Positions 23,023 through 41,972 of a stretch of 64,000 bases of DNA are shown here, piece after piece. Origin of the DNA: Gammaproteobacteria bacterium. GTDB lineage: Bacteria > Pseudomonadota > Gammaproteobacteria > Poriferisulfidales > Poriferisulfidaceae. Location: NCBI GenBank assembly GCA_028819565.1, contig JAPPLD010000020.1:32099-96098 (forward strand). The letters run 5' to 3'. Position numbers and translations under genes: made by a program. A model generated the notes under the pieces. It saw only the letters and a list, made by a program, of their open reading frames with translations. It was not told where the DNA came from and made no database searches. The stretch's first letter is position 1. The number at the start of each line of letters is the position of its first letter.

Positions 23023-23191
23023 GTCGGGTCATTCACCTTTTGTTCAGGGAAAAACCAGAGAATCTGGCATTTCGTACAGCCATTGTACTGGATGTTTTTC
23101 CATCAGCCAACTGGTCGGCTGAAATATTTGTGATAGATTAGCCTCAAAAGAGTCGTGTCCCCACGATTGTCAGAATTACTTAGGAGGAGCC

Positions 23192-24334
23192 GTGAAAAAA
23201 CTGTTTATTAATCTACGCTATTTCCTCGCGCCGCTGCTGATCCTGTCGGCACTGTTCGGGGTTTTGGCAGGCGGCCCGTGGGTCTGGACCGGAATCGCCC
23301 TGATGGGCATCGGCATTCTGGTTGATACCACAACGCCACAACGCACCATGGGTGCGGGGTTTGACGAAGAGGGTAACACCTATGGCATCCCTGCTCTTCA
23401 GAACGGTGTCATGTACAGCATGCTGGGCGTTTTCGTCCTATTGCAGTTGGCGATCTGCTGGCGCATCTACCAATATGTAAATGGTGTCCCGATGGGGACT
23501 GGCACTTTCCTGGGCCTGTCCTATCAGGAAGGGATTACCGGGATGCAGTTGGTCGGGGCGGTCGTTTCGACAGGCATCTTTGCCGGCATCGGCATCATCT
23601 ACGGGCACGAGCTGGCGCACACCAAGGGCTTCAGTTTCGTGATTGCACGCTGGATGATGGGGCTGTCCGGTTCATCCCATTTCTGCTACGCGCATGTGTA
23701 CAACCATCATCTGGAACTGGGTTGCGAGGATGATCCCGCAACTTCGCCGCGCGGACGCAGTCTGTACGCTCATTTCCCGAAATCCTATTTCGGCCAAAGC
23801 AAATTCCTGTATTCGATGGAGAAGCATCGCCTAGAGCGTCTGGGCGTGCCGTTCCTGTCTTGGCAGAACCGCTGGATTCGTGGCTATGCAATGAGCTTGC
23901 CGACGCTTTTCCTGTTCTGGATGGCAGGCGGCTGGCTCGGCATCTGCGCCATGCTGCTGATCTGGATGATCTCGAACTTCGAGCTGGAAGCGCTCAACTA
24001 TCTGGAGCACTATGGGCTGATTCGCGAGAAAGGCCAGCCCATCGACTATCGCCATAGCTGGGACAACAGCACGGCGTTCACCAGCTGGTTCTTCATCGAG
24101 ATCGGCCGTCAGGCAGACCACCACGACCGTGGTGAAACTCACTTCTGGGAGCTCGACGAGGTCGGGGCGCCAAATACGGGGATGGGGTATTTCACCCTGT
24201 TCGCGCTGGCGTTGGTTCCACCGGCATTCCATGCTCTCATGGAAATTGAGTTGAAGAAGTGGGACGACAACGAAGCCTCTGAAGGCGAGTTGGAAGTCTC
24301 CCGGGCGATCAACAAGGTTGCAGGCTACGCATAA
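23192..24334 (+). CDS. AlkB-like integral-membrane non-heme di-iron hydroxylase / fatty-acid-desaturase-superfamily protein
   Basis: 380 aa, multiple TM helices. Has the four AlkB-family His boxes (HELAHTK, HVYNHH, NYLEHYGL, ADHHDRG), cf. AlkB HELGHK / EHNRGHH / NYIEHYGL / SDHHA. Confidence 0.7.
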   Translation: MKKLFINLRYFLAPLLILSALFGVLAGGPWVWTGIALMGIGILVDTTTPQRTMGAGFDEEGNTYGIPALQNGVMYSMLGVFVLLQLAICWRIYQYVNGVPMGTGTFLGLSYQEGITGMQLVGAVVSTGIFAGIGIIYGHELAHTKGFSFVIARWMMGLSGSSHFCYAHVYNHHLELGCEDDPATSPRGRSLYAHFPKSYFGQSKFLYSMEKHRLERLGVPFLSWQNRWIRGYAMSLPTLFLFWMAGGWLGICAMLLIWMISNFELEALNYLEHYGLIREKGQPIDYRHSWDNSTAFTSWFFIEIGRQADHHDRGETHFWELDEVGAPNTGMGYFTLFALALVPPAFHALMEIELKKWDDNEASEGELEVSRAINKVAGYA

Positions 24335-26389: not shown

Positions 26390-27523
26390 ATGACTACGGT
26401 GCCCTTGGACATGGCAGTCATCGGCGCTGGGCCAGCTGGAAGTGTCTGCGCCTATAGCGCGCTTGCCATGTCCACGAAAATACAAGTAGCGCTTGTAGAC
26501 GGGGAAACCTTCCCGCGCGACAAGTCCTGCGGCGATGGGGTCCGGTGTGATGCCGTGTCCATACTGAGAAAGCTTGGCCTAGGGACCATCTTCGATGGGA
26601 AGCCGGTAATCCGGCAGTTGGAGCATACAAGCCCCCCTGGCTTTAAATGTCCGGAAATATCCTTGACAGACGGCGAAGTTGATCCCATGGATGAAATCGG
26701 GTATTACATCGTCGAACGCAAAATCTTTGATCACCATTTGTATGAAGCGGCAATAACTCAAGGGGCAAAAGACTATACGGGGTGCAGGCTGACAGATGCC
26801 AAATTTGATGAATCACAGAAGTTCTGGAATCTGATTTTGCAGGAACGGTCTGGAGCGAGGACCGCGATCCGGAGCCGGGTCTTAATCGGTGCAGACGGCG
26901 CAGGGTCGCGAGTTCGACGGATTGCGGGGTTGAGCCTCAACGGACAGCAGCACAAAGCGGTTGGTCTTCGCGCATATGCGCGAACCGAAGATCTGGCGGA
27001 GAACATCATGCGTGTTGATTTCACCAAGAGCCTGATTCCCGGATATGGATGGGTGTTCCCGCTGGGGGGAGGCAAAGTCAATATAGGAGTAAGCCTTGAT
27101 GCGCGTGATTACAGAAGTTGTGGCAGGAGCCTGGTCTCCTATCTGGACGAGTACATGGGGTATCTAAGCGGCCAGGATGTGGCGATTCAAGACTTGAGCG
27201 GCATCAAATCTCATTCATTGCCGCTAGCGTCGATGTCTCCGCCTCTCGTTCCAAGGCGGCAACTGGCGCTGATCGGTGATGCGGCGGCGATGATCAACCC
27301 ATTCACCGGAGAAGGAATCCACTACGGAATTTGGGCAGGGCACTCGCTGGGAACGGCTATCGGCAAAAATGTGAGCCAGAAAAAATCCGTACAAGCTGCT
27401 TTGGAAGGCTACGCTAGATCATACGCAGAACGATTCGAGGAGACCATGAAGCAGTATGAGAACCTGCGTAAGTGGCTAAGATTCCTGAGATTCCTGGCCA
27501 ACCCGGCCGAGGCGCGGTCTTGA
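26390..27523 (+). CDS. geranylgeranyl-reductase-family FAD-dependent oxidoreductase
   Basis: 377 aa. N-terminal AVIGAGPAGSVCAY...VALVDGETFPRDKSCGDGV matches the GG-reductase family (FAD-binding GxGxxG plus a conserved Cys after the DG motif). Lower GC. First gene of the low-GC RiPP island. Confidence 0.6.
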   Translation: MTTVPLDMAVIGAGPAGSVCAYSALAMSTKIQVALVDGETFPRDKSCGDGVRCDAVSILRKLGLGTIFDGKPVIRQLEHTSPPGFKCPEISLTDGEVDPMDEIGYYIVERKIFDHHLYEAAITQGAKDYTGCRLTDAKFDESQKFWNLILQERSGARTAIRSRVLIGADGAGSRVRRIAGLSLNGQQHKAVGLRAYARTEDLAENIMRVDFTKSLIPGYGWVFPLGGGKVNIGVSLDARDYRSCGRSLVSYLDEYMGYLSGQDVAIQDLSGIKSHSLPLASMSPPLVPRRQLALIGDAAAMINPFTGEGIHYGIWAGHSLGTAIGKNVSQKKSVQAALEGYARSYAERFEETMKQYENLRKWLRFLRFLANPAEARS

Positions 27524-27701
27524 CGGAAAAAGTGCCGGTGGCCCCTGTGGTTCGAGGGCCTGCCTAATCCGACCGTTCCTCTATTGCCGATGCTTTCGAG
27601 TCCGCCGTAGGTCCTCGGCTCTCACTTGACACGACTGTCGCGCCGTGGACAATTCCTGCTATGTCGTCGCCGGATTAATCCTGGCAAGCGAGGAGGGTGT
27701 T

Positions 27702-30119
27702 ATGGCGGAAGGCAGGGCAGAGACAGAGGGCTTGGAGATTGCGGCAGAAAAGGCGATGGAACCCTCGTTCGGGAATGCCTTGCTGTATTTCCAGTCTCTC
27801 GCGGTTTTCCCCCTTATTGTTTGCGCTGCCATGTACGGTGGTTGGTGGATCGCGGGCCCGATCCTCTTCATTATCCTTGTTGAAAGTCTCGATGGCGCCT
27901 TTGGAGAGGAAGAGCGCAACATGGATCCGGACCGGACGTCCGCAAACCAATTGCACTGGTACGAATTGAGCCTCTGGTTATGGGCGATTCTCTGGCCCGC
28001 GACACTGGTGTTCTCGCTCTGGCAGATTCTTGTTGTTGGGCATCTATCCGTTTGGGAAATTGTGCTGATGGCGTCGGTATTGGTGAATGTCGGCCAGGCG
28101 GTCTTCATCATCGGCCATGAACTGGTTCATCGGCAGGCTGCCTGGGAACGCTGGTTTGGTGAGTTTCTGCTCGCCTCCTCTTCCTACCCGCATTACGCCA
28201 CTGAGCACATCTACGTTCATCACGCCCTCGCCTGCACGCCCATGGATTCCGGGACCGCCCCCAAGGGAGTGAGCTTCTGGCAACTCCTTCCGGGAGATTT
28301 GAAGGACAGCTTGGTCAAATCTTGGCGCTTCGCACGCAACCGGTTAGCCCGTCGGCGCCTGCCCGTCTGGCACTACACGAATCCGTTCTGGCGATACGCC
28401 ATTGGAGTCGCGGTGTGGTATTCGCTGGTTTATTGGATGGGTGGGCCGTGGGCATTGTTGATCTTCATCGCTCTTTGCTTCAGCGCAATCCTTTCGATGA
28501 AGATCATCAATTATGTCCAGCACTATGGGCTGCAGCGGGTTCTCTTGCCGAGCGGTCGGCACGAGAAAGTTCGGCCGCGGCATTCTTGGACTGCTTCCAG
28601 CAGGTTCACGAACTGGCTTTTCTATAACATGGAGCGCCATGCCGACCACCACCTCGAGGCAACCCGGCATTATCCGCTGTTGCAGCATTACGGCGAGGAC
28701 GAATCACCGAAATTGCCGGGAAGTTACCTCAAGATGGCAGGCCTCGCCATGTTTCCCCGCAAATGGTTCCGAACCATGGACCCATTGGTCGATCGCTGGC
28801 GCGCGAAATTCTATCCGCAGATCGAGGACTGGCGCACTTATGAAAGCCGGGCGTACGCCGCGTACCCGGGCGCATTCGAGGCAATCAGTGAAATCCTTGG
28901 CGCTGCGCCTCTCCTCGCCGAGTGGATTAACCACTCCCCAGAACTGCTCACGAATCTTCAGGACAGGGAGTTCACTGACCTTGACCTGCCGGATGGTTTT
29001 GGGCCGGACCCGGAATCCGAGAGAGTGGCCCGCAGCGGTCTTGTGCGCCTCTACTGGACGCGCGAGTTTGGGGTCTCCGAAATGGAAGAGCAGATTACGG
29101 AAGTCCCGTTCCAAGGGACTCGCGAGGCGGTGGAGATCGCCCGGCACTGGTCAAATGACAAGACGTTTCAGGTTGGCATGCATATTATGCGCGGCAACCT
29201 GTCGCCGGTCGAGGCAGGAACAGCGTTGTCCAATATCGCCGAAGCCTCGGTTTCTGCCTTGCTGCTGGCAGTCCAGAAAGTCCTTTCCAACCGCCACGTT
29301 TGGCAGGCCGGGGATGGCGTGGCAGTGGTGGCTTTGGGAGACCTCGCCAGCAGGGAAGTGGTGCCTGGGACCGAATTGCGTCTTATGATTGCCCATGGCA
29401 GCGGCAGTGCTCCCGGAGCCCATCACGAAGTGATTTGCCGCCGCTTCCTTGATGCGCTTCATTCGCTGTCGCGCAACCACCTGCTTTTCACATCAGCCCC
29501 GGGCGGGGGAGACGATAATGCCGTTCATTCCCTCACCGATTTCACGGAACTCTATCAGGCTGCCGGTTCGGTCAGGGAACTGTTAGACCTGGCTCGGGCA
29601 CGGTGTGTTTTCGAAACTGGCGACCCAGATATCGGGGAGCGATTTGCTGAAGCAAGACGCGAGATCCTGGCCTCCGACCCGACTTCGCAACGCATGATCG
29701 CCGAACTTCGCGGAATCACCGAAGGCACGGCCGACCCTGGCCTGTCCTCAATCGACGATATGCGGGGAGGTCGCCGAGACGTCGAACGCGCCGCCCGATT
29801 CTTGCAACTGACCCACGCGAATGACACTCCGGACATTCTGGTTCCCGATGCGGTCTCCATCTTCCGAACCGCAGGTGCCGGTGGCTTGATTTCGGCCGAG
29901 GTTGCAGCGCGGTTGGTGGAGGCCACGGAGATGTGGCAGAACTTGCGAGGCATACTGCGGCTGGCTATGGAAGACGATCTTCCAGTCGAAGCGGCAAGCG
30001 CGGAGGCTAAGGACATGATCGCCAGATCCTGCGGGCTGGACGATTTTGACGAGTTGACTGCCGCGATTCGTGAAACGGCTTCCCGTGCCGCTGCTGATAT
30101 TGAAGAAGTAATGACGTAA
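27702..30119 (+). CDS. fusion protein: N-terminal AlkB-like membrane di-iron hydroxylase domain plus C-terminal GlnE/GlnD-like nucleotidyltransferase-type domain (catalytic acidic pair degenerate)
   Basis: Strong RBS GAGGAGGG before ATG 27702 within ORF 27645..30119. N-terminal ~390 aa have TM helices and His boxes HELVHRQ, EHIYVHH, NYVQHYGL, ERHADHH. C-terminal ~430 aa resemble GlnE adenylyl-removase NT plus helical domains, but GAVVALGDLASREVVPGTELRLMIAHGSG replaces the G(S)x9-13DxD motif. Confidence 0.55.
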   Translation: MAEGRAETEGLEIAAEKAMEPSFGNALLYFQSLAVFPLIVCAAMYGGWWIAGPILFIILVESLDGAFGEEERNMDPDRTSANQLHWYELSLWLWAILWPATLVFSLWQILVVGHLSVWEIVLMASVLVNVGQAVFIIGHELVHRQAAWERWFGEFLLASSSYPHYATEHIYVHHALACTPMDSGTAPKGVSFWQLLPGDLKDSLVKSWRFARNRLARRRLPVWHYTNPFWRYAIGVAVWYSLVYWMGGPWALLIFIALCFSAILSMKIINYVQHYGLQRVLLPSGRHEKVRPRHSWTASSRFTNWLFYNMERHADHHLEATRHYPLLQHYGEDESPKLPGSYLKMAGLAMFPRKWFRTMDPLVDRWRAKFYPQIEDWRTYESRAYAAYPGAFEAISEILGAAPLLAEWINHSPELLTNLQDREFTDLDLPDGFGPDPESERVARSGLVRLYWTREFGVSEMEEQITEVPFQGTREAVEIARHWSNDKTFQVGMHIMRGNLSPVEAGTALSNIAEASVSALLLAVQKVLSNRHVWQAGDGVAVVALGDLASREVVPGTELRLMIAHGSGSAPGAHHEVICRRFLDALHSLSRNHLLFTSAPGGGDDNAVHSLTDFTELYQAAGSVRELLDLARARCVFETGDPDIGERFAEARREILASDPTSQRMIAELRGITEGTADPGLSSIDDMRGGRRDVERAARFLQLTHANDTPDILVPDAVSIFRTAGAGGLISAEVAARLVEATEMWQNLRGILRLAMEDDLPVEAASAEAKDMIARSCGLDDFDELTAAIRETASRAAADIEEVMT

Positions 30120-30196
30120 ACGACATCCTGCAGGCCAAGTGATACTGGAGGCACCAGTAGAATGGTTGCGAACGAGTACCGGTTTTGAAAGCGGAT

Positions 30197-32539
30197 ATGA
30201 GTCATAACACGCAGGAAGACGCAGAGTCGCACCAAAAGTTGAATCGCGGAATCCTGCGCAAGGTGGATGCCGCCGACCTCGGCGTGATCGAAATGCCGGC
30301 ATTGACGCCGCATCTTGAGTTTCGAGAGATTGGTGATGGACAGGTGCTTCTGGTCTCCGAACTGTTCAATACGCTGCTTCGCGGGTCAATCCATTCCGAT
30401 CTTCTGCCTCTTCTCGACGGTTCGCGTTCGCACCATGACATTGTGGCCGCTCTTTCCGGTACTTATTCGGAATCCAATATTCGGACGGCATTGGCAGCCC
30501 TTGCCTCAAGAGGCTATGTCGTCTCGGGTGATTATGCCTTGGAGCGAGAATCGGCGGCGTTCTGGTCTTCGTTGGGCGCTTCTCCCCGGTGGGCCGAAAA
30601 ACGCTTGGCAGCCTCGAAAATTTCGATGACCGGTGACGAGGGCAATATTGCCCGTCGGCTTGATGCCGCGGGCGTGACCATAGATGCGGATGGCCCGACC
30701 CTCTCCGTGGTGGTGTGCAAGGACTACCTTGAGCAGATGCATGAGGACATAAACCGGCGCCACATTGAGTCCGGCGTGCCGTGGATGCTGGTCAGGCCGA
30801 AGGGCATCCACCCTTTGTTCGGGCCGATTTTCCGGCCGGCGGAGCAGGGGCCGTGCTGGGCCTGTCTCGCCTATCGTCTTCGCGGCCACCAGGAAGTGCA
30901 CAATTTCCTGCGAAATTTCGCTGGTGCAGATGCCGCGTTTCTTCCTGGTGCCGCTGACCCCACCGTTCTGGATGCGATATACGGCCTTGCCGCGACTGAA
31001 ATCGCGAAATGGCTGGTTTTGGAAGAAATGGCGCCACTTCATGCACAGGCAATCTCGATCGATACCATTCGCCTGAAAAGCGAACACCATCAGGTTATGC
31101 GTCGCCCGCAGTGCTTCACATGTGGCGATGAGAGGCTGTACCGCGCTGACCGGCCACCGGAGCCGGTGCGGCTGAAGCCAAGCCCGAAAGACATCTGCAA
31201 CAGTGGTGGCGTGCGCTCAGTACCTCCAGAAAAGACTCTGGCCAAGTATCAGCGCCTGATCAGCCCCGTCAGCGGGGTCGTGTCGTGGGTTGCGCGTACT
31301 ACGGAGGAGACGGACCCATGGCTGCATGTCTATTGGGCGGGGAGCAATTTCGCACTGAGAAGCAGCGAACTGAATTCGTTGCGGCGGAGCCTGCGTAGCA
31401 AGAGCGCGGGCAAGGGAAGCACGCCGCGGCAGTCTGAAGCAAGTGCGCTTTGTGAGGCGATAGAACGCTACTCCGGGGCCTTTCATGGCGATGAGATTCG
31501 TTGTCGAAGACGTCTTGCGGATTTTCTCAAAGCCGGAGAATCCGAGGCGATCCATCCAAATGACGTTCAACTGTTCAGCGACCAGCAATTGAATAATGCC
31601 GAGCAACTCAATGCGCGCGGTCATCCTTACAATTTTGTCCCGGCGCGGTTCGACCCAGATGCAGAGGTGGATTGGTCGCCTGTGTGGTCGCTTACGCAGG
31701 GTCGGCATCGATACCTGCCGACATCTATGCTCTATGGAATGCTCGATGAACAACGAGGGAATTCAGGTCTCAAGGCGGATTCGAATGGCTGTGCTGCGGG
31801 CAACACGCTTGAGGAAGCCATCCTGCAAGGGTTCTTGGAATTGATCGAACGTGATGCTTTCGCTGTTTGGTGGTACAACCGACTTCGCTTGCCTGGAGTG
31901 GACCTGGAAAGCTTTGGAGACGATTATCTTGCATCCGCGCAGAATTACTACGGCGGTTTCAATCGTGAAATGTGGGTGTTGGATGTCACCCATGATTTCG
32001 GCATACCTACTTTTGTTGCCGTCTCGCGCCGGACTGACGAGGGAGAGGAAGACATTATCTACGGGGCCGGGGCGCACCTGGACCCACACATTGCAGCCTT
32101 ACGTGCGGTGTGCGAACTGAACCAGTTTTTGAACTGGGCCCAAGGGTCGGAGCGGGGGGGGTGCGGCCATGATGTTGACGAGCCATTGTGCCGATGGTGG
32201 TGGAAGAACGGGAAACTCGGGGATCATCCCTACTTGATGCCAGCGTCTGACGTCTCGTTACGCGGCAAGTCTGATTACCCCATCCCTGACACTGCGGATG
32301 TCAGAGAGGATGTGGAGCGATGCCGTGCACTGGTCGAAGCCAAAGGCTTGGAGTTCTTGGTTCTGGATCAGACGCGGCCAGACATCGGCATGCCGGTTGC
32401 AAGGGTCATCGTGCCCGGCTTGCGCCATTTCTGGGAACGTTTCGCGCCTGGGCGCCTGTTTGACGTGCCGGTCGAAATGGAATGGCGCGAAAGTCCTGTT
32501 GAGGAAACGGATCTCAATCCCATCCCGGTCATCGCCTGA
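30197..32539 (+). CDS. PatD/TruD-like azoline-forming cyclodehydratase (fused E1-like/RRE N-terminus plus YcaO domain)
   Basis: ORF 30185..32539 (TTG), with the likely start at ATG 30197. YcaO hallmark motifs GKGSTPRQSEASALCEAIERYSG and GCAAGNTLEEAILQGFLELIERDAFAVWWYN. About 780 aa, matching fused heterocyclases of cyanobactin/TOMM pathways. C-terminal PxPxP-like tail. Confidence 0.8.
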   Translation: MSHNTQEDAESHQKLNRGILRKVDAADLGVIEMPALTPHLEFREIGDGQVLLVSELFNTLLRGSIHSDLLPLLDGSRSHHDIVAALSGTYSESNIRTALAALASRGYVVSGDYALERESAAFWSSLGASPRWAEKRLAASKISMTGDEGNIARRLDAAGVTIDADGPTLSVVVCKDYLEQMHEDINRRHIESGVPWMLVRPKGIHPLFGPIFRPAEQGPCWACLAYRLRGHQEVHNFLRNFAGADAAFLPGAADPTVLDAIYGLAATEIAKWLVLEEMAPLHAQAISIDTIRLKSEHHQVMRRPQCFTCGDERLYRADRPPEPVRLKPSPKDICNSGGVRSVPPEKTLAKYQRLISPVSGVVSWVARTTEETDPWLHVYWAGSNFALRSSELNSLRRSLRSKSAGKGSTPRQSEASALCEAIERYSGAFHGDEIRCRRRLADFLKAGESEAIHPNDVQLFSDQQLNNAEQLNARGHPYNFVPARFDPDAEVDWSPVWSLTQGRHRYLPTSMLYGMLDEQRGNSGLKADSNGCAAGNTLEEAILQGFLELIERDAFAVWWYNRLRLPGVDLESFGDDYLASAQNYYGGFNREMWVLDVTHDFGIPTFVAVSRRTDEGEEDIIYGAGAHLDPHIAALRAVCELNQFLNWAQGSERGGCGHDVDEPLCRWWWKNGKLGDHPYLMPASDVSLRGKSDYPIPDTADVREDVERCRALVEAKGLEFLVLDQTRPDIGMPVARVIVPGLRHFWERFAPGRLFDVPVEMEWRESPVEETDLNPIPVIA

Positions 32540-32590
32540 AGTGCCGCTCTGCGGCAGCCGTATTTTCGATCTCGCACGCAGCTCGTTTCT

Positions 32591-33475
32591 CTATTCTTCG
32601 GACTTCTGGCCTGGCTTTGTGCCGGACAAGAAGTGGTAAGTGAACGCGCCTGCCTGCAGGCCTTTGTCAAAGTCGAGGGCGGCCCCCATGAATTCATGGT
32701 AGGCCAGATCCGGTCCCGGAGGAGGAGGGGTCAGAAATCCGAACCATGACCAGAATTTTCGGGTCATTTCTGTAGATGGGGCCACCTCTGCTGACAGATT
32801 TTTTTCCTGCACTTCGCGGAATCCCGCTTTTTCCAGGGCCACGCGCGCGTCGGACCACGTCACCAATGGGGGCATGCGAAAGCCCCACTGCATACTGGCG
32901 TGAACAGCCTCATGGGCTTCGGACAGGGGAACTCCGCTCAGCAAGCCTTCCAAAGCCTGCCAGCGACCGCCTGGCCTCAGAATTCGGTAGACACCCTGTA
33001 AGTAGGCATGTTTGTCGGGTGCGTAGCAGAATGATTCATGGTTCAACACTGCATCGAAACAAGCGTCGGGAAAGGGCATATCCATGAAATCGCCATGGTG
33101 GAACTCAACCAAGCCGCCGACTCCGCGCTGTTCCGCGAGTTCTGTCGCAACCGCGACATGGGATTCGCAATTAGTCAAACCGATGGCTTGGACTTTGTAC
33201 GTTTCCGCCAACCAGATCACCATTCCCCCGACGCCGCAGCCGGAGTCGAGGATCCGTTGCCCCGGCTTGAGATTGCATTCCTGTGTCAACGTCTGATTGG
33301 CGCGCAGTAGGGATTCGTAGTGGGATTTCGTGTCCGACCCCCAAAGCCCGAAATGGCAGGTAAGGAGGTCGCCTCCGCCGTATTTCACAATGGGGTCTGT
33401 CAACGCTTCATAATGAGCAGGAACAGAAGTTTCTTGTTCTTGGTCGCTTTTCGGAATTTGTTGCGGATTCGTCAT
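32591..33475 (-). CDS. class I SAM-dependent methyltransferase
   Basis: 294 aa. SAM-binding motif I RILDSGCGVGG, plus the acidic residue after beta-2 and motif post-I. Convergent with the cyclodehydratase gene. Confidence 0.75.
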   Translation of the reverse strand: MTNPQQIPKSDQEQETSVPAHYEALTDPIVKYGGGDLLTCHFGLWGSDTKSHYESLLRANQTLTQECNLKPGQRILDSGCGVGGMVIWLAETYKVQAIGLTNCESHVAVATELAEQRGVGGLVEFHHGDFMDMPFPDACFDAVLNHESFCYAPDKHAYLQGVYRILRPGGRWQALEGLLSGVPLSEAHEAVHASMQWGFRMPPLVTWSDARVALEKAGFREVQEKNLSAEVAPSTEMTRKFWSWFGFLTPPPPGPDLAYHEFMGAALDFDKGLQAGAFTYHFLSGTKPGQKSEE

Positions 33476-34596
33476 GGTAGCGCAGTTTAGGGCATCTATT
33501 GCAGTTTGGATAGTTTTGGGTCGCCATTTCTTTCTTTCCCTTTTAGGTGGCAGGTTTCAGGATCAGAACCAGTAATTGGGATTTTCCCACGACTGAGATG
33601 GTCACCATCATCTCAACCCCAACGGGCGTAGGATTGCCACCAGGCCCAGGCCCAGGTGTCACATCCGCAGGAGCGACGATTTCAGGCGGTGCGTCTTTCG
33701 CTTCGGGCGCAAGAACTTATGGGTCCACGGGGACGGGAATTATGATACCGCCGAGCAACGAATCCCATAATATATCTGTCCAATTCAGGCACATGGGTAC
33801 TCACAGAGGTAAGGCGCACTTCGCCGTCGAAGCCGACACGGCGAATCGATACTCTGCTGTCTGCAGAGGCTGCGGGCATTTTACTATCGGAGCATTTGTT
33901 AGTGGCGTAGTAGGCACCACGTGCTAAGCGGTGGCCGACAGGCCAGTCATTTGCCCGCCGCCGGGTGTAATGCCAGCGGTCGTTGATCGGAACCGACAGC
34001 GGCCTCCCCCATCGTCGCCTTGGATTCCGAGCCGGGGTTCAGCACTGCCGGCGCAATAGGCTGGAGAACCCGATTGCCCGGACCCCGGATCAAGCCCGGG
34101 GCAGGCGGCTTCGCTGCGGCAGTCTCCGCGACCCAACTTCAACAGTGGGTCTCAAGGGTATTCAATCACACAGGGGGTTACGCCGCGTTGCCGAGTGCAT
34201 CCATTGCATTTTTCTCACCCTGCGCCAACCCGGACGCCACGATCCAATGGTTTCAACAACTTGACGAAACCGGAGCCGGCAAGAATCGATGCCTACGGTT
34301 GGAGTCGGGTCTGGGTGGACACCAGCGTCATCGACGGCCGGGACGGGCACGGGTCATGCTCAAACCGAGCGGTTCCAAACCGTTCTCCCGGATGCGGTGG
34401 ATTGCTCATCGCCATGTTGCCATTCCTGCCGGTGGGGGTCGATCAGGTCAACTTGTTTCGTGAATTTCCCCGGAATTAGGCATGCTCGATGCTACACTGT
34501 AAAAATAAAAATTGGCATCGCCTCGAATCCAGCCATCAACAGCGTGGGCAAGCCATGTGCATCACTGGAGTTAATCCTTTCACTTGAGTCGTCGCT

Positions 34597-35706
34597 GTGA
34601 GTCTCGAAGAACAATGGGTCGCGACTGAAGACCGCCTTCTTCATGAAACGGAATCCCTGGGTGGGCTGCTTGGGCAATTAAGGGATCGTGTCTCTTCCGG
34701 TTTGATTGGTGACGAGGAGTGGGGGAAGATACTGGAACGTGCCCGCGGATTGCCTGTCACAATGGGTGCTTTTCCTTTCGGCTTCGAATTGCTCATGCAC
34801 GAATCACGGCCGGGGGCGGATTTCGGCGCGTCGCTGGTCGGGGGAAGCCAATCGGCGGCGTTCTTTGAGAAAAGGAGTAAAACGAAAGATGCGGACCCGG
34901 CTACTGCTGGAGTGGCTTGGTTGCTAAAGGAAACGGAACCAGAGAGCGCCCCCCTCCGACGCATCGCTGGCCGAAAGATGCTGCTCGAATATGATGTCGA
35001 TCAAATACCGTCTGGAGAATTTCCGGATCCCGGCATTTTTCTGTATCCTGCCGATCAGGTGTTGGCTGGCGATGGTTCCGATCAGCGCCTTCATGAACTA
35101 AGGATCGTGGCCGACGCGGTGGCTTCTGCGACGAACCGCAGGTTGAACGAAGCTGAGCACCGACAGATAGACCAGGTATTCTTGGCGATGAACCCGAATA
35201 CGAGTGTTCGGGCCGTTGGCGCTTTCCCGTCGCGAGCAAGGGAAATTCGATTGACGGCGACGGGATTCAGGAAGGCGGATGAGGTCGGGGAATTCCTGAA
35301 ACGCACGAACTGGCCTGGACAGCATTCTGCTGTGACTTCCACCGTGTCGCACTTGGAAGAACGCGAGGCTTTCGCCTATGTTGGAATCCACTACGATGTT
35401 GCGGAAAACGGTGTAGGCCCGACGCTCGGACTGAGTTTTTTCGCCAAGGAAGGGCAGTGGCTTAAAGATGTCCGACACTGGACTCCATTGATTGACAGCA
35501 TCCGCGAGGAACAACTCGCTGTTCCAGAGAAACTGTCGGAATTGGTCGCTTGGTCGTCGGGGTCGGAACCCTTATCCGGCAAGTCCGGTTCGTTTGTGCT
35601 GGTGCGCGGCATTCACCACATCAAATTTACACTGGTCGACGACCGGGTCGAGCAGGTCAAAGCATATATTTTTCTTCTTTTACTGGCATGGCCGTTGACC
35701 GGTTGA
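34597..35706 (+). CDS. hypothetical protein (RiPP-cluster associated, GTG start)
   Basis: 369 aa ORF with balanced composition and no recognisable motif. Sits between the modification genes and the RND exporter. Confidence 0.4.
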   Translation: MSLEEQWVATEDRLLHETESLGGLLGQLRDRVSSGLIGDEEWGKILERARGLPVTMGAFPFGFELLMHESRPGADFGASLVGGSQSAAFFEKRSKTKDADPATAGVAWLLKETEPESAPLRRIAGRKMLLEYDVDQIPSGEFPDPGIFLYPADQVLAGDGSDQRLHELRIVADAVASATNRRLNEAEHRQIDQVFLAMNPNTSVRAVGAFPSRAREIRLTATGFRKADEVGEFLKRTNWPGQHSAVTSTVSHLEEREAFAYVGIHYDVAENGVGPTLGLSFFAKEGQWLKDVRHWTPLIDSIREEQLAVPEKLSELVAWSSGSEPLSGKSGSFVLVRGIHHIKFTLVDDRVEQVKAYIFLLLLAWPLTG

Positions 35707-35755: not shown

Positions 35756-38098
35756 TTACGCCGGAATTGTTTTGCGCGATTTGGTGCGCTGGCCCAAAGT
35801 TATCAGCAAGGAGGGCAGCAGCAGCAGATCGGCAATCAGCGCGAGCACGATGATCAACGCGGTAAGCAATCCCACCTGGACAGTCGGGATGAATGGAGAA
35901 AGGACCAGGATTAGGAAACCTGCCGCCAGCACGGTCGACGTCGTGAACAATGCCCGCCCGACTGCCTGGAAAGCGTAACGCACCGCATCCTCGGCCGTAG
36001 AGTTGTACTCACGGCGTGCCCGGCAGTATTTGCTGAGAAAGTGCACCGAGTCATCCACCACAATTCCGATGGTCATCGCCATAACGACCGACAGCACAAG
36101 CCCGACTTCTCCTACTGCCAGTCCCCAGATTCCAAATCCCATTGCGCCGGGAACGAGATTTGGCACGAGGCTTACGAGACCAAGCCGTAGTGAGCGAAGG
36201 GCGGCGATGAGGAGCATGGAAATGCCGAAAAGCGCGAGCGTCGTTCCGAGCAACATGGCCTTGATGTTGCGTAGCCCGATGTGTGCGAACATTAATGCGG
36301 CTCCTGCGCCTTCGGCTTGAGTGAAGTGGGGCGCATGGTCGTCCAGCCATGCCGCGGCACGCTCGTTCAGTTCCACGACCTCCCGCGAAGAGAGCGTTCT
36401 CGTCGTCACCGTCATGCGGGTGGCTGACCTGGAAACATCAATCTGGTTATTGAGGTCGAGGCCAAGAGGGAGCGAGAGTTCATAAAGGAGCAAGTATTGC
36501 GAGGCGAGGTCGCGGCTGGCGGGTAGCCGATAGGCGGCAGGGTCGTCTCCGTGCATGCTCTTGTTGAGTTGCTGGAAAGTGTCGCTAAGTACCGTGACGT
36601 GACGTGTTTCCGGTTGTACGCGATACCAGGCGGCGAAAGCTGCGAGATTTTCGAGAAAGGCAGGTTCGGAGATCCCGCCCGGCCCAGATGAGACCACCGA
36701 ATATTCAAGCACGGTGTTTCCGCTGAGATGCTCATCCATAAAATCTATATCTCGACGAAACTCCACGCTCTCATCGAAGAAATACACCAAAACATCATTC
36801 AGCTCATTGCGGGGGATGGCTGCGACCAGCATCAGGACCACTGCGACCGAACCCCACAGCAAATGCTTCCGGTGACGCACCACAAATTCCGCAATGACTG
36901 CCATAACCGGATCGGCGTCCTGTCGGATTCTTGGCGCACGGACCGGAAGGAGTGAAAGCAGGGCGGGCAGAAACGTCACCGTGAGCACAAACGAAGCGCC
37001 GACCCCAAATGCGACGAACATTCCGAGGTGACGGTATGGAGGGACTTCAGAGAAATTCATGCTCAGGAACCCAAGTGCCGTCGTTAGGCTCGCGAGGAAG
37101 ACCGGATACAGGTTGATGTTGAGGGATTCGACAATCGCGACGTGTTTCGAGTCTCCAGCCCGCAAGCGTTGCAACAAAGTGACCAGCAGGTGTATGCAAC
37201 TGGCAACAGCGATCATCAGCACGATAGTGGGTGCCGGAGCGGTCGGTGGCGTGAACGGAAGGCCAACCCAGCCCCCCAGCCCCATTGCCACGAGAACCGA
37301 AAAGATGATGATCAAGCCCGTTGCCACGACTCCCGTAAATCCCCGGATCAGGATGCCGAGCGTCAATGCCATGATGGCCAGGCTCGCGGGCAGGAAAGTT
37401 TTCTGGCCGTCTATCGTTGCCCTTGAGAGGGTGTCGTTGATTATCACTGTGCCAACCAGACGGAGATCAATGCCGGGAAAATTTTCTTCCGCTTCGACAG
37501 CAAGGTCATGCGCGAATTTGGCAACTTCGGAGACCTCGGCCGATTCGTCTTCTTCAGAAAGTTTTATGGTGACGCTGACCGCACTCACGCCTCCATCCCG
37601 GGCCACGAGATTCCCAACGAGTCGGGGTTCGGCCAATGCCGTTTCGCGGATCCAGGATCGTTCTTGGACATTATCCAGCTGCAGCGGATTCACGAGATTG
37701 CGCACAACCAAATCGTCGCCGTCGGCGGCGGTATGCTGGAAGTTTGCAATTGAATCGACTCGTGTCGAATACGGTGTTTGCCAGGCGCGGTCGGTAAGCC
37801 AGACTATGGCCGCGAGAGATTGCTCTGATGCGAAATCACGATTTTCCGGAACCACCAGGAAGACGACGTTGTCGTTTTTCCCGTAGGTATTTTCTAGTGC
37901 TTCAAACGCCAAGAGTTGAGGATTGTCCTCATCGAAGAACATACGATAACTTGTAGAGGTCTGAAGAAACATGCTGCCGCTAGCGGCGAGCATGACCAGG
38001 ACCAAAGAGATGATGATGATCGGCCAGCGGGTCGCGATCACCCACTCCCCGAATCGCATTCCAAAAGATTTGGGAGTGCGGGGAGGCTTGCTCGTCAT
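35756..38098 (-). CDS. RND-superfamily exporter (MMPL/HpnN-like, two 6-TM bundles)
   Basis: 780 aa. Two hydrophobic blocks, each after a large periplasmic loop, typical of the COG1033 predicted exporters. Directly downstream, on the same strand, of the NHLP precursor gene. Confidence 0.75.
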   Translation of the reverse strand: MTSKPPRTPKSFGMRFGEWVIATRWPIIIISLVLVMLAASGSMFLQTSTSYRMFFDEDNPQLLAFEALENTYGKNDNVVFLVVPENRDFASEQSLAAIVWLTDRAWQTPYSTRVDSIANFQHTAADGDDLVVRNLVNPLQLDNVQERSWIRETALAEPRLVGNLVARDGGVSAVSVTIKLSEEDESAEVSEVAKFAHDLAVEAEENFPGIDLRLVGTVIINDTLSRATIDGQKTFLPASLAIMALTLGILIRGFTGVVATGLIIIFSVLVAMGLGGWVGLPFTPPTAPAPTIVLMIAVASCIHLLVTLLQRLRAGDSKHVAIVESLNINLYPVFLASLTTALGFLSMNFSEVPPYRHLGMFVAFGVGASFVLTVTFLPALLSLLPVRAPRIRQDADPVMAVIAEFVVRHRKHLLWGSVAVVLMLVAAIPRNELNDVLVYFFDESVEFRRDIDFMDEHLSGNTVLEYSVVSSGPGGISEPAFLENLAAFAAWYRVQPETRHVTVLSDTFQQLNKSMHGDDPAAYRLPASRDLASQYLLLYELSLPLGLDLNNQIDVSRSATRMTVTTRTLSSREVVELNERAAAWLDDHAPHFTQAEGAGAALMFAHIGLRNIKAMLLGTTLALFGISMLLIAALRSLRLGLVSLVPNLVPGAMGFGIWGLAVGEVGLVLSVVMAMTIGIVVDDSVHFLSKYCRARREYNSTAEDAVRYAFQAVGRALFTTSTVLAAGFLILVLSPFIPTVQVGLLTALIIVLALIADLLLLPSLLITLGQRTKSRKTIPA

Positions 38099-38270: not shown

Positions 38271-38546
38271 TTAGGTACAGCAGCAAAGACCCGCAGCAAT
38301 TGTCTCAAGTTGCTCTTCATCCAGGTCCGGACCTGCCGGCAGGGCAAGATGGAGCGTGGTCATGCTGCTTTCATGTACTACGATTTCAAAGCCTTCCGGA
38401 ACCTCAACGCCGAATTCTTCCGCGATGACGCCTTTAGGGTCGGCTAGCAACCGTTGACGAAAACCAGTGTCTTCACACGCTTTATCCGTCAGGTGCTGAC
38501 GCATTTCCTCGGCCCGTTGCTGGGCCGTTTCGACAAATTCTCCCAT
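38271..38546 (-). CDS. RiPP precursor peptide with nitrile-hydratase-like leader peptide (NHLP family), AG cleavage motif and 5-residue core LCCCT
   Basis: 91 aa with RBS GAGGAGG seven nt before the ATG. Leader LLADPKGVIAEEFGVEVPEGFEIVVHESSMTTLHLALPAGPDLDEEQLETIAAG matches the NHLP consensus (LLANP..AL.EEGIE.PEG.EVKVVEDT..TLHLVLP.....LSDEELE.VAGG). The ORF ends ...IAAG-LCCCT-stop. Confidence 0.8.
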   Translation of the reverse strand: MGEFVETAQQRAEEMRQHLTDKACEDTGFRQRLLADPKGVIAEEFGVEVPEGFEIVVHESSMTTLHLALPAGPDLDEEQLETIAAGLCCCT

Positions 38547-38828: not shown

Positions 38829-39737
38829 ATGACCCTATATGGACAAGCATTGATGTTCAATAGTCTGTTTTTTGATGATGCTGCGGCCAGCAGGAACAAA
38901 CGCCATCAACTCGGCTATTTATTAAGGGTAGCGGCTCCTCACGAGCGCGTCATCCTGGCTGGCATCGGTGCGGTTTTGTTGGCGCTCCTCGTTTGGATAT
39001 TATTCGGCAGTGTTGTACGCAGCGTTACGGTCGACGGAGTCCTGCTGAAGCCAGGAATCCGCCATGAGGTTGTCTCGACCGAGCCGGGCCATTTGATGAA
39101 GTTTTTGGTGACCCTTGGAGACCAGATTGAAAAGGGGGGGGCGATTGCCCGTCAGACCGTACCGGAATTGGAGCGCGAGATTACCGCTTTACGTGACCAG
39201 ATTGAGATTCTGGAGGCGGGGGTGCGGCAGGTTGGTGGTGACGGCACGAACTCATTTCTAATCTCGGCCCAAGAAGCATTGCTGCAAATGGAAGCCCGGC
39301 GTATTGCGAAAGAAGTCATCGCCAGCCACATGAATGGCGAAATCATGGTTTTGGATGCTGCCCCGGGAGACTACTTGCCTGCTGGATCAGTTGTTGCCCA
39401 GCTTCGCGATCCGGAGGACAAGCCACTCCAAGCGGTGCTGCTAGTCGCTCCGCGTATGGCAAAACGTCTCCGTGCTGGCATGCAGACATCGGTCGAGGTT
39501 GTAATGTCGGACGGGGCAGTGCGTGAAGTGGATGGAGAAATTGTCGCTGTAACCTCTGGGCCGTTTCCGAATTGGCTTGCGGCGTTTCAGTCGGAGAGCG
39601 TGGATTACGCCTATCGCGTCGACATTACCCTTGACTCTGAATCGAAACTCGCTGTGCCGGACGGCACGCCATGCCACGTACGCATCTTGCTTGGTCGGCA
39701 TTCGCCTATCGCGCTGCTTAGCCTAGAGCAAATTTGA
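38829..39737 (+). CDS. HlyD-family secretion adaptor (NHLM bacteriocin-system secretion protein type)
   Basis: 302 aa. N-terminal TM helix LAGIGAVLLALLVWILFG. Coiled-coil region PELEREITALRDQIEILEAG. C-terminal beta-barrel-type region. Immediately upstream of a C39-peptidase ABC transporter. Confidence 0.7.
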   Translation: MTLYGQALMFNSLFFDDAAASRNKRHQLGYLLRVAAPHERVILAGIGAVLLALLVWILFGSVVRSVTVDGVLLKPGIRHEVVSTEPGHLMKFLVTLGDQIEKGGAIARQTVPELEREITALRDQIEILEAGVRQVGGDGTNSFLISAQEALLQMEARRIAKEVIASHMNGEIMVLDAAPGDYLPAGSVVAQLRDPEDKPLQAVLLVAPRMAKRLRAGMQTSVEVVMSDGAVREVDGEIVAVTSGPFPNWLAAFQSESVDYAYRVDITLDSESKLAVPDGTPCHVRILLGRHSPIALLSLEQI

Positions 39738-39749
39738 TGGCTATCCTGA

Positions 39750-41972
39750 ATGCCTTCTTCCAACCCGAAAGAACCGACTAAACCCGGTAAGTTGCAAATA
39801 AAAGAACGCGAAAAGCGGCGTGTGACTACTCCGCTTCTGCTGCAGATGCACATGACCGAATGCTCTGCCGCATGTTTGGGTAGCGTACTTGCCTATTTCG
39901 GGCGCTGGGTGCCACTGGCCGAATTGCGCGACAGATGTGAGATCAGTCGGGATGGTTCTACAGCTGCCGGCATCAAGCGTGCGGCCCAACACTATGGCCT
40001 CGAATGTTCCGGATGGTTCGGAAAAATTAGCCAGATCAAGCAACGGCCACTCCCGATGATCTTATTCTGGGAATTCAACCACTTTCTGATCCTGGAAGGC
40101 TATGACCGCGATTGGTTCTATCTCAACGACCCAGCCACCGGACGCCGAAATCTCTCAAGGAAGGAATTTGAAAGCGGCTTTACAGGAGTGGCTCTGCAGT
40201 TCGAACCTGGACCGGAATTCCAGCCCGGAGGCGTTCGTCCTAGCGTCTTGGAACGTATCCTGCCCTGGTTGCAAGGCACTTGGGGTGGATTGGCTTATGC
40301 GGTTGGATGCGGGCTATTGCTGGCCGTCCTGGCCCTCGCTACACCTGCATTACTGATCATATTCGTGGATCAAGTATTGGGCAAAAGTGAGCCTTGGGGA
40401 GGGATTGTGGCCGGTGCCATGGCAAGCGCGGCCGTTCTCATCTACGGGTTGACTTGGTTGAAACGGAGATGTTTGCGGCGTTTGGCTGCCCGCATCTCGA
40501 TAGTTGCTTGGGATCAATGTCTGACTCGGCTACTGCAGTTGCCAATCGACTTCTTCCATCATCGGTTAGCGGGAGAACTGACAGCCCGCGTCCTGTCTGT
40601 CGACAAGATTGCCAAGGCTCTTTCGAATCACTTCATCAGCCTGTTGATCGAACTCGGAATGAGCATAGTGTTTTTGTTCGCCATGCTGGCGTACGAGCCG
40701 ACGTTAGCGCTAATCGTCTTGGGCTTGGCCGTACTTAATGCCGTTTTGATGCGCCTGATCTCACGTATTCGCGCCGATGCGAGCCATACCCTGCAGAGAG
40801 AGCAAAGCCTGTTACTGGGCATCGGAACGATGATGCTGCATCACACGGATACATTGCGGGTGACTGCTGCGGATGATCGCTTCTTTTCCCGCTGGAGCGG
40901 CCATCAAGCTCGAGAGATAGAAGCGCGCCAGTGCTTTTCCGAGTGGAGCCATGTTAATTCGGCTTTGCCGGGCCTGTTCTTGATCTTGGGGAGTGTGGCT
41001 GTATTGGCGATTGGCGCAACAGAGGTTATGGCTGGTGAAATGACACTCGGCATGTTGGTGGGATTTTATGTTGTGGCGGCTATGTTTTTGGAACCCGTCG
41101 GGCGTTTCGTTTCGTTTTCAGACGATCTTCAGATACTTGAGACGGATATGCAACGCTTGGAAGACATTACGAAGGCCTCGAAAGATCCTGGGTTAGCCCA
41201 GAGGCGTGATTCGTCGGATTCCATTGCCACACTGAATGGGCGGTTGCAGTTGGCTGGGCATGTAGAGCTGCGCGACATCACCTTTGGCTACAACCAGAGT
41301 CGCCCTCCCATAATCGAGAATTTTGACTTGACAATAAAACCAGGGCAGAGAGTCGCAGTGGTTGGGGCGAGCGGGTCGGGAAAATCGACACTGGCCCGCT
41401 TGATTTCCGGCCTCTACCAGCCATGGTCCGGTGAAATTCTGTTCGACGGTTATCTCAGAGATGAAGTTCCTGACGAAGTTCTATCCCGGTCTTTATCGAT
41501 GGTTGACCAGAATATTATTCTTTTTTCTGCGACAGTACGTGAGAACATCACTTTATGGAATCCTGCCATTCCAGACGATATTCTGGCTAGGGCAGCCCGC
41601 GATGCCTGCATTCACGATGAGATTCTCAGCCGGCCACATGGCTACGCGACGCAGGTCGAGGAAGACGGAGATAATTTCAGCGGCGGTCAGCGACAGCGAT
41701 TGGAAATCGCGCGCGCATTGGTCGGCAACCCGACAGTATTGATTCTTGATGAAGCAACCAGCGCGCTTGACGCGGCCACCGAGGATTTGGTCGACGATGC
41801 ACTACGCCGCCGGGGAATTAGTTGCCTAATCGTGGCGCACCGGCTGAGTACGGTTCGGGATTGCGACCAGATTATTATGCTCGAAAAGGGGAAGGCAGTA
41901 CAGCGTGGCACACACGCTGAGTTGATAACGGACAAGGACGGGACCTACTACCGGCTTGTCCAGGCTGGTTAG
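39750..41972 (+). CDS. ABC transporter with N-terminal C39 bacteriocin-processing peptidase domain (NHLM-system peptidase/ATP-binding protein type)
   Basis: 740 aa. C39 domain LLQMHMTECSAACLGSVLAYFG with the catalytic Cys. Six-TM domain. Walker A GASGSGKST, signature FSGGQRQRL, Walker B ILILDEATSALD. Confidence 0.85.
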   Translation: MPSSNPKEPTKPGKLQIKEREKRRVTTPLLLQMHMTECSAACLGSVLAYFGRWVPLAELRDRCEISRDGSTAAGIKRAAQHYGLECSGWFGKISQIKQRPLPMILFWEFNHFLILEGYDRDWFYLNDPATGRRNLSRKEFESGFTGVALQFEPGPEFQPGGVRPSVLERILPWLQGTWGGLAYAVGCGLLLAVLALATPALLIIFVDQVLGKSEPWGGIVAGAMASAAVLIYGLTWLKRRCLRRLAARISIVAWDQCLTRLLQLPIDFFHHRLAGELTARVLSVDKIAKALSNHFISLLIELGMSIVFLFAMLAYEPTLALIVLGLAVLNAVLMRLISRIRADASHTLQREQSLLLGIGTMMLHHTDTLRVTAADDRFFSRWSGHQAREIEARQCFSEWSHVNSALPGLFLILGSVAVLAIGATEVMAGEMTLGMLVGFYVVAAMFLEPVGRFVSFSDDLQILETDMQRLEDITKASKDPGLAQRRDSSDSIATLNGRLQLAGHVELRDITFGYNQSRPPIIENFDLTIKPGQRVAVVGASGSGKSTLARLISGLYQPWSGEILFDGYLRDEVPDEVLSRSLSMVDQNIILFSATVRENITLWNPAIPDDILARAARDACIHDEILSRPHGYATQVEEDGDNFSGGQRQRLEIARALVGNPTVLILDEATSALDAATEDLVDDALRRRGISCLIVAHRLSTVRDCDQIIMLEKGKAVQRGTHAELITDKDGTYYRLVQAG

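Follow-up and report, generated by a model that had tools for sequence, protein, structure and literature searches.

Among the alkane 1-monooxygenases of the AlkB type, which stand in the context of alkane catabolism, the enzyme of Fontimonas thermophila is an AlkB-rubredoxin fusion (FtAlkB-AlkG; 8F6T, 8SBB), in which the electron carrier rubredoxin follows as a C-terminal cytoplasmic partner right after the AlkB core. The AlkB family also includes XylM and CymAa, whose substrates are aromatic compounds and terpenoids that become hydroxylated at benzylic or allylic methyl groups. GlnE, the glutamine synthetase adenylyltransferase/adenylyl-removing enzyme, is a protein of ~950 aa with two tandem nucleotidyltransferase (NTase) modules (AR and AT), and structures are available for its N-terminal domain (1V4A) and its adenylyl-transferase (AT) domain (3K7D). 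Here we describe a gammaproteobacterial gene (27702..30119) whose 805-aa product joins the two families: an AlkB-type oxygenase is extended at the same point as in FtAlkB-AlkG, but by a ~440-aa dead GlnE module instead of a rubredoxin. The gene lies in a stretch of 64,000 nt of contig JAPPLD010000020.1 (GCA_028819565.1, forward strand), which we refer to as the window; all coordinates are window positions, and features are on the forward strand unless marked (-). A first-pass annotation made from the DNA letters alone had proposed the fusion of an AlkB-like hydroxylase with a GlnE-like NTase, and both domains were found by domain scans, by comparison with solved structures and by fold searches. 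The protein represents a new domain architecture and probably a new role for an AlkB-type enzyme. Our reading is that it is a tailoring oxygenase of srp proteusin clusters, which would act on a lipophilic intermediate and use the pseudo-GlnE part as a platform; we consider the chances of this reading to be evenly balanced.

The srp ('sponge-derived RiPP proteusin') clusters, which specify peptides that are made by the ribosome and modified after translation (RiPPs), are the closest described relatives of the gene island around the fusion. Their YcaO protein SrpC forms three thiazolines in the precursor SrpE, the core of which is LCCCW (PMC10858898), and the Trp at the end of this core is brominated by SrpI (PMC10858898, PMC10286304). 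Sponge microbiomes are reported to carry clusters of this type widely, and the precursor genes rank there among the most highly transcribed biosynthetic gene cluster genes, across symbiont phyla (bioRxiv 10.1101/2023.06.09.544420). In the srp literature searched, reconstitution covers the YcaO and the halogenase steps only, and the final product is not described. The island in the window shares with srp clusters the L(X)4L motif, the AG site, the LCCC-x core, the YcaO protein and the spread over several phyla. It is by the L(X)4L motif and LCCC-x core of its precursor that we assign the island to the srp family; the RiPP island recognized by the first-pass annotation is therefore real, but belongs to a named proteusin family instead of being a generic NHLP/YcaO island. 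An NHLP precursor, a YcaO protein with leader-binding domain and NHLP-type export are all encoded. However, the SrpE core ends in Trp, the substrate of a halogenase, whereas the core in the window is LCCCT, ending in Thr, and in place of an SrpI-type Trp brominase there is a flavoprotein of the geranylgeranyl-reductase (GGR) family.

The fusion is genuine and occurs far beyond the window. In a genome scan with one genome per species, at least 576 genomes encode a relative, of which the best 80 were characterised; 84 related loci were taken with 10-kb flanks and searched with the window proteins by tblastn. The best 80 genomes are almost all metagenome-assembled genomes, many of them closed chromosomes, they come from several phyla, and their proteins are 52-75% identical to the window protein. 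Hosts are Ca. Porisulfidus and other Gammaproteobacteria, Nitrospirales, Vicinamibacteria/Acidobacteriota, Binatia, Gemmatimonadota (Ca. Palauibacter), Alphaproteobacteria, Opitutales and Ca. Poriferihabitaceae, and several record names in this set hint at sponge symbionts (Ca. Porisulfidus, 'lac_sponge', 'Spongia_Bin9', Ca. Poriferihabitaceae). Moreover, a protein search gave >100 clusters of 800-830 aa with both Pfam domains at 55-76% identity, and an exhaustive search with the C-terminal domain added further FA_desaturase/GlnE-like fusions of ~800 aa, down to 27% identity. One Ca. Porisulfidus chromosome record (OY288106.1) contains two diverged copies ~30 kb apart (L006 and L062). Identity to the window protein is 75% for the first and 53% for the second, within 10 kb of which neither a YcaO gene nor an NHLP or exporter gene is found. 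The first-pass annotation had itself considered that an assembly or frameshift artefact might join two genes, and in one metagenome contig (L089, 6964-9371, coverage ~10x according to its name) the gene is indeed called as two open reading frames (ORFs) of 346 and 456 aa. Yet the frame change in this contig, as located by tblastn, is at about residue 290, inside the AlkB domain and not at the domain boundary, and we rejected L089 as a natural split of the domains in favour of a frameshift or pseudogene within the AlkB domain. With an architecture of ~805 aa recurring in that many genomes, closed chromosomes included, and in that many protein clusters, and with the two halves packed confidently in the AlphaFold2 (AF2) model (pTM 0.83), the artefact explanation has practically nothing left to stand on.

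The N-terminal half (residues ~20-366; 27759..28799) is an AlkB-type integral-membrane di-iron oxygenase domain. Pfam FA_desaturase covers residues 117-345 (E 9e-28), and a phmmer search of the PDB with the N-terminal 400 aa retrieves the Fontimonas AlkB 8F6T with E 1.5e-54, the identity to solved AlkB proteins being ~23-31% in structural alignments. The nine His ligands of AlkB are found in HELVH (residues 139-143, H139 and H143; 28116..28130), EHIYVHH (residues 168-174, H169, H173 and H174; 28203..28223), NYVQHYGL (residues 270-277, H274; 28509..28532) and HADHH (residues 313-317, H313, H316 and H317; 28638..28652). Eight of them are invariant in 117 homologues and H316 is conserved in at least 90%. 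Hydrophobic segments are confined to residues 23-273, and the long helices of the AF2 model match the transmembrane helices of AlkB, which gives the multi-pass topology of the family; His boxes and membrane helices had both been placed in this half by the first-pass annotation. Because all nine di-iron ligands are conserved, the oxygenase half is probably active. The AF2 model of the whole protein (pLDDT 88) was used for a fold search, in which FtAlkB (8SBB) came first (values 38.1 and 358), followed by the GlnE AT domain 3K7D (30.9 and 389), the GlnE N-terminal domain 1V4A (30.6 and 379) and the AMPylase DrrA (6YX5; 20.7 and 279). HEPN-type helical domains came next, which is what one would expect given the helical half of a GlnE module, and Foldseek gave agreeing matches.

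Since all hydrophobic segments lie within residues 23-273, the C-terminal ~440 residues form a soluble domain after the AlkB core. This part (residues 367-805; 28800..30116) is a GlnE-type NTase module with a helical lead-in, the NTase core and a C-terminal helical subdomain. Pfam GlnE (PF03710) matches residues 460-649 with 34 bits against a gathering score of 24, so that the domain scan did not place this half in an unrelated family, and GlnD_UR_UTase matches residues 688-802 weakly. In NCBIfam, residues 474-804 align to the C-terminal AT half of GlnE, with a score of 108 bits that is far below the cut-off of 724 (PRK14108). Against the PDB, the C-terminal 415 aa retrieve the adenylylation domain of E. 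coli GlnE (3K7D, E 6e-5), and the nearest non-fusion relatives are likewise AT halves of true GlnE proteins, the best of which (P0260) has 38% identity (E 2e-68).

The catalytic residues of GlnE are lost in this module. Its degenerate NTase motif, G546-DLAS-R-E...T-E558-L-R560-LMI (29337..29390), corresponds to GKLGG.E...S-D-L-D-L of GlnE, as judged from the 3K7D alignment, from column counts, from comparison with true GlnE proteins and from the tally over the 84 loci. In the alignment GDLASREVVPGTELRLMI (residues 546-563) stands opposite GKLGGWELGYSSDLDLIF of E. coli GlnE, and DLD is thus turned into ELR. The replacement of the acidic pair by E..R had been seen before in the window copy; it now proves to be one instance of a family-wide degeneracy. 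The column of the first Asp holds Glu in 71, Ala in 15, Asp in 14 and Gly in 5 of the 117 homologues, besides others, and the second column of the dyad Asp in 86, Arg in 12, Glu in 7 and His in 3, again besides others. The DxD dyad is kept in 5 of the 84 genome loci, and its first position is occupied by A, E, D, G, P, R, S, N, K, M, H, V or T. The (Y/F)-(D/E)-V-D-x-R-L-R-P motif of GlnE is replaced in the alignments by LLFTSAP (29481..29501), the third catalytic Asp is present in none of the 84 loci, and Ala occupies position 597 in 91 of the 117 homologues. The change of VDxRLRP to LLF(A/T)xxP is found in every type of fusion, including the distant ones and the forms fused to RND transporters described below, and the same alignment shows intact catalytic motifs in the six true GlnE sequences that served as controls. 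Thus, the fold and the PF03710 match are those of GlnE, whereas a second NTase module, the DxD dyad, the third Asp with RLRP and an equivalog-level NCBIfam score are all missing. As all catalytic and architectural hallmarks fail, the C-terminal half is GlnE-derived and not a GlnE.

Other parts of the module are well kept. R634, G689 and G690 are invariant, the latter two within the GlnE/GlnD-type motif RGGxxD(V/I)E, which reads MRGGRRDVE in the window protein (29760..29786), and the Arg of the 'TRAR(V/C)' motif of GlnE is retained too. The most conserved stretch is residues 367-530 (28800..29291), with the DLDLPDGFGPDPE loop (426-438) and YWTREFG (451-457), which holds most invariant residues of the C-terminal half. 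The mean pairwise identity is 70% for this stretch and 60% for the whole C-terminal half, compared with 65% for the AlkB domain; conservation is lowest in the NTase core (52%). By these measures the GlnE-like half is under purifying selection. Since the catalytic residues are lost throughout the family and the domain is constrained nevertheless, it is a pseudo-enzyme, retained most likely for a role other than catalysis. A module that is still an active NTase with non-canonical residues, for example one that would AMPylate a hydroxyl group installed by the AlkB domain, could account for the RGGxRD(V/I)E motif and R634, for Asp or Glu at position 560 in 93 and for an acidic residue at position 558 in 85 of the 117 homologues. 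We regard such an activity as very improbable, because the window protein reads E-L-R, the dyad is highly variable among species-level genomes, the third Asp is missing throughout, RLRP is lost, and the NTase core shows the least conservation in the whole protein. The retained RGGxxDxE motif may leave the module a role in sensing a ligand or nucleotide.

The fusion is a conserved signature gene of srp-type proteusin clusters, its usual position being immediately upstream of YcaO. A YcaO match within 10 kb is present in 62 of the 84 loci, mostly as the next gene downstream of the fusion, and matches to the other window proteins were found in 45 (C39-ABC transporter), 43 (a 369-aa protein with prenyltransferase fold, see below), 41 each (MMPL transporter and NHLP precursor) and 35 loci (methyltransferase). 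The same gene order is found in Nitrospira (L001) and Defluviicoccus (L002-L004) and is even kept around fusions that are ~44% identical over the whole protein (L087, L088); two other distant fusions lie on contigs that are too short to include their neighbours. A metagenome scan anchored on YcaO yielded four loci, two of them with upstream sequence, which are too few for an estimate of the reverse co-occurrence; the fusion neighbourhood was present in both. The precursors of the different loci keep the leader motif (L/I)xEEQL and an AG or GG cleavage site and vary mostly after the Cys triplet, with the cores LCCCW (15 loci), LCCC, LCCCG(V/F/L/I), LCCCL, LCCCT, LSCC(L/V) and RCCC. Halogenases are present in some other loci (L078, L087, L089). 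Because the cores vary in this way, the fusion tracks the shared L-C-C-C chemistry and not the terminal residue or the halogenase.

In the window, the gene can start at two positions that share the stop at 30119. The NCBI record (MDE0153324.1, 'fatty acid desaturase') uses the GTG at 27645, giving 824 aa. A GAGGAGG ribosome-binding site 6-7 nt 5' of the ATG at 27702 and the family speak for the latter start, as 805 aa and an N-terminus 'MA...' are typical of the fusion family. A sigma-70-like promoter match from a consensus scan (TTGACA-16-GACAAT, 27626..27653) precedes the gene; such matches are no more numerous in the region than in shuffled sequences and the site is only suggestive. Directly 3' of the fusion follows the gene of a fused TOMM leader-binding and YcaO (SagD-type) cyclodehydratase (30185..32539; Pfam, with TIGR03882 and TIGR03604 above their cut-offs), right after the stop of which there is a terminator-like hairpin (32542..32556, a consensus match only). 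Promoter-like site and hairpin weakly suggest one transcription unit, and fusion and YcaO gene are probably co-transcribed.

Directly 5' of the fusion lies the gene of the island's only flavoprotein, a member of the GGR family (26390..27523; TIGR02032, 161 bits against a cut-off of 159), which also adjoins the fusion in L007, L028 and L030 and occupies the slot that is held by the Trp halogenase in LCCCW-type clusters. We considered the flavoprotein as an SrpI-type halogenase and rejected this, as it has no WxWxIP motif and scores as a member of the GGR family. Downstream of the YcaO gene are a SAM-dependent methyltransferase gene (32591..33475 (-); Pfam and NCBIfam), the gene of the 369-aa protein (34597..35706) and that of an MMPL/HAE3-type RND transporter with a sterol-sensing-like domain (35756..38098 (-); family scans). 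The NHLP (proteusin) precursor gene (38271..38546 (-); TIGR03793, 73 bits against a cut-off of 51) encodes 91 aa ending in ...LDEEQLETIAAG-LCCCT; this end, ...LDEEQLETIAAGLCCCT, belongs to a protein with the L(X)4L motif LDEEQL, the AG cleavage site and the LCCC-x core. The NHLP export set (38829..44895; profile scans) consists of an HlyD-type adaptor, a C39-peptidase ABC transporter (ABC1) and a second ABC transporter (ABC2), with TIGR03796 above its cut-off, TIGR03797 at 670 bits against 709 and a partial match to TIGR03794. Between the methyltransferase and the 369-aa protein lies a stretch of 1.1 kb (33476-34596) in which no ORF matches a family. Searches of the 84 loci with tblastx and blastn gave no match to it, it is not repeated elsewhere in the window, and Rfam has no match either; most other loci have the gene of the 369-aa protein straight after the YcaO gene.

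The flanks of the island carry genes of other kinds. Straight after the second ABC gene lies a TraB/PrgY/GumN-family gene (45023-45949), which is probably outside the conserved cluster, as it has no homologue in the 84 loci. Further downstream are an MmeI-type restriction-modification enzyme with all five MmeI domains (59401-62202 (-)) and a DUF2857 protein (55089-56138), which may be mobile or defence-related cargo. Upstream, a stand-alone AlkB-like gene with a divergent MerR gene (22066-24334) recurs at 84-99% identity together with dinB, only in L005-L011. The first-pass annotation had taken the stand-alone gene (23192-24334) for a paralogue of the fusion; its product is AlkB-like (8SBB, E 5e-29), but with 27% identity and its recurrence beside MerR and DinB genes only in L005-L011 it was rejected as a paralogue belonging to the cluster. 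From this distribution, the AlkB-like/MerR pair can be assigned to the host backbone adjoining the island. The label 'B12-type' for the MerR regulator is not established, as its match to CarH reaches 53 bits against a cut-off of 400 and Pfam finds no B12-binding domain.

The 369-aa protein bears on the question of whether the peptide carries a lipid. None of its 277 homologues has a name or a Pfam domain; invariant Glu, Lys, Tyr, His and Arg residues are present. No sequence match was found for it in Pfam, NCBIfam or the PDB, and no similarity to known prenyltransferases is detectable, including the ABBA prenyltransferases of cyanobactins (PatF, PagF, DciF). Its AF2 model, of very high confidence (pLDDT 93.5, pTM 0.91), has the fold of an ABBA barrel, with fold scores of 13.0 for PatF, 11.8 for PagF and 11.4 for DciF and a best score of 8.4 for a protein that is not a prenyltransferase. 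Linear cyanobactins such as aeruginosamide combine thiazoline rings with N-prenylation and C-terminal O-methylation. In contrast to cyanobactins, the precursor in the window carries a long leader of NHLP type and leaves the cell through C39-ABC transporters, and we know of no membrane oxygenase in cyanobactin pathways. The ABBA fold, the GGR-family reductase and the MMPL-type lipid exporter together suggest that the mature product carries an isoprenoid, and an srp-type cluster with the fusion therefore probably makes a lipid-tagged peptide. The idea of the first-pass annotation that the fusion acts on the peptide or on an attached lipid moiety gains support from the ABBA-fold and GGR-family genes in the same island. 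A literature search for prenylation in srp or proteusin pathways gave only the unrelated PalQ and the lanthipeptide prenyltransferase MppC.

From this gene set the following pathway can be proposed. The YcaO reaction would come first, as reported for the srp homologue SrpC, and the ABBA-fold protein would then, by analogy of its fold, attach an isoprenoid, which in the genome of the window may be saturated by the adjacent GGR-family enzyme. The lipophilic, thiazoline-containing and probably prenylated intermediate would partition to the membrane, where the AlkB domain, with O2 and two electrons, would oxidise an aliphatic C-H bond at the inner membrane face before export. The likeliest target would be the terminal methyl group of the prenyl-derived chain, with a Leu side chain as the alternative, and the product would leave the cell via the MMPL and NHLM ABC exporters. 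For the dead GlnE module, the most plausible role is that of a platform in the cytoplasm, which would serve to hold the protein-like NHLP leader or else to position or gate the redox partner. Since a search of the window and of the 84 loci turned up no rubredoxin, the electron donor would have to be encoded elsewhere. Of all this, the identity of the two domains, the lost catalytic residues, the conservation and the synteny are shown, and the substrate, the reaction and the docking role are inferred. A more far-reaching version, in which the protein is the first membrane di-iron tailoring oxygenase of RiPPs, oxidises, at the membrane, the isoprenoid tail of a prenylated tris-thiazoline peptide and has in its pseudo-GlnE part a new leader-docking domain that is not a RiPP recognition element (RRE), is speculative and in our view rather doubtful.

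Several points weigh against the fusion as a tailoring oxygenase acting on a lipophilic intermediate. The substrate is a proposal from gene context, and a precursor with a soluble leader of ~86 aa would be an unusual substrate, as solved AlkB relatives draw theirs from the bilayer. The rubredoxin motif CxxCG...CPxC occurs neither in the 64-kb window nor in the 84 related loci, a donor elsewhere in the genome being possible. Only about half of the loci have the prenyltransferase-fold gene within 10 kb, and some cores (LCCC) lack an aromatic or hydroxyl residue that could accept the prenyl group. About a quarter of the genome loci (~20 of 80) have no YcaO gene within 10 kb, and a search for shared neighbours found none common to these loci beyond ABC transporters. 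In addition, the srp literature searched describes no AlkB-GlnE or prenyltransferase-fold gene; it did not include the founding srp paper, which may list the fusion.

The tighter linkage of the fusion to YcaO (62 of 84 loci, usually adjacent) than to the prenyltransferase fold (43 of 84) would fit a different chemistry, in which the AlkB-like domain is a desaturase or oxidase that turns the YcaO-made thiazolines into thiazoles, replacing the FMN-dependent SagB/McbC-type dehydrogenase, with the dead GlnE module holding the precursor. Indeed, no SagB-type dehydrogenase is found among the scanned ORFs of the island or in the Pfam lists of the related loci, and members of the FA_desaturase superfamily perform two-electron dehydrogenations. 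However, AlkB-type active sites are reached via a narrow lipid-facing channel, we know of no membrane di-iron enzyme that oxidises azolines, and the prenyltransferase, GGR and MMPL genes would be left unexplained. Even though srp products are termed 'azol(in)e'-containing (PMC10286304), we hold this oxidation to be distinctly improbable.

The neighbours of the YcaO-less loci open another possibility. They include MacB/FtsX-type permeases (L014), a LolA-like protein together with a Trp halogenase (L078) and an AcrB pump (L047); their recurring theme, which also speaks for the tailoring reading with its lipophilic intermediate, is the membrane handling of hydrophobic molecules. L080 lacks a nearby YcaO gene as well, and so do L027 and L031, which like L014 are from Vicinamibacteria and have upstream ORFs similar in size to those of L014. 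The fusion might oxidise a lipid of the membrane, or else a hydrocarbon or isoprenoid taken from the environment (sponge-derived), and accompany the cluster for self-protection, membrane remodelling or export, or as mobile cargo. This would agree with the YcaO-less loci as such, with the second, diverged Ca. Porisulfidus copy that has no YcaO gene nearby, and with the dead GlnE module found on an RND pump in an isoprenoid context without RiPP genes. Yet the order of fusion and then YcaO is kept across the phyla named in the record titles, down to ~44% protein identity, and several 'YcaO-less' loci still have NHLP, halogenase or NHLM ABC genes; moreover, the promoter-like site and the hairpin around fusion and YcaO gene weakly suggest one transcription unit. 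We therefore judge a lipid or hydrocarbon substrate unrelated to the peptide to be unlikely.

The RND pump just mentioned (P0287, ~1525 aa, L090 8001-12578; also P0290) consists of an AcrB-type RND transporter with a degenerate GlnE-like module at its C-terminus. Its neighbours are a membrane fusion protein (MFP), an MpaB/Lcp-like oxygenase gene and two squalene/phytoene synthase genes, and there is no NHLP gene. The AcrB-GlnE-like and the AlkB-GlnE-like fusion, both uncharacterised, have in common a degenerate module that lacks VDxRLRP, its place at the cytoplasmic C-terminus of a membrane protein dealing with hydrophobic molecules, and an isoprenoid-related neighbourhood; they differ in the membrane partner, the two being unrelated proteins, and in the RiPP context, which the pump lacks, and the modules share 31% identity. 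As the pump fusion sits in a locus without an NHLP gene, the dead GlnE module is not limited to NHLP systems, and the occurrence in a non-NHLP context weakens the idea that it docks the leader, a further point against the tailoring reading. At the same time, the pump beside its squalene/phytoene synthase genes points to a broader link with membrane proteins for hydrophobic, isoprenoid-type molecules and in this respect counts in favour of a lipophilic substrate. The module may serve such proteins more generally as an accessory domain on the cytoplasmic side.

Compared with the systems described so far, a membrane di-iron oxygenase in RiPP maturation would be unprecedented to our knowledge and in the literature searched. 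A search for literature that links AlkB or fatty acid desaturases with GlnE, proteusins, SrpI or RiPPs returned nothing relevant, within a scope that did not include the founding srp paper and the mpr paper. AlkB relatives known from alkane catabolism differ from the fusion in context, as the latter belongs to a RiPP cluster with no rubredoxin gene nearby, and GlnE differs in having two modules and intact DxD, third Asp and VDxRLRP, whereas the fusion has one module, attached to a membrane enzyme. For the annotation of the family this means that hundreds of database entries that now read 'fatty acid desaturase' or 'hypothetical protein' could be given a new label. The presence of the dead module on an RND pump as well adds an example of the reuse of pseudo-enzymes. 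Furthermore, the AlkB/dead-GlnE gene and the cryptic ABBA prenyltransferase give a testable prediction, namely that the peptide is lipidated and then oxidised. If this is true, the srp clusters of sponge microbiomes would make oxidised lipopeptides and not simple brominated azoline peptides.

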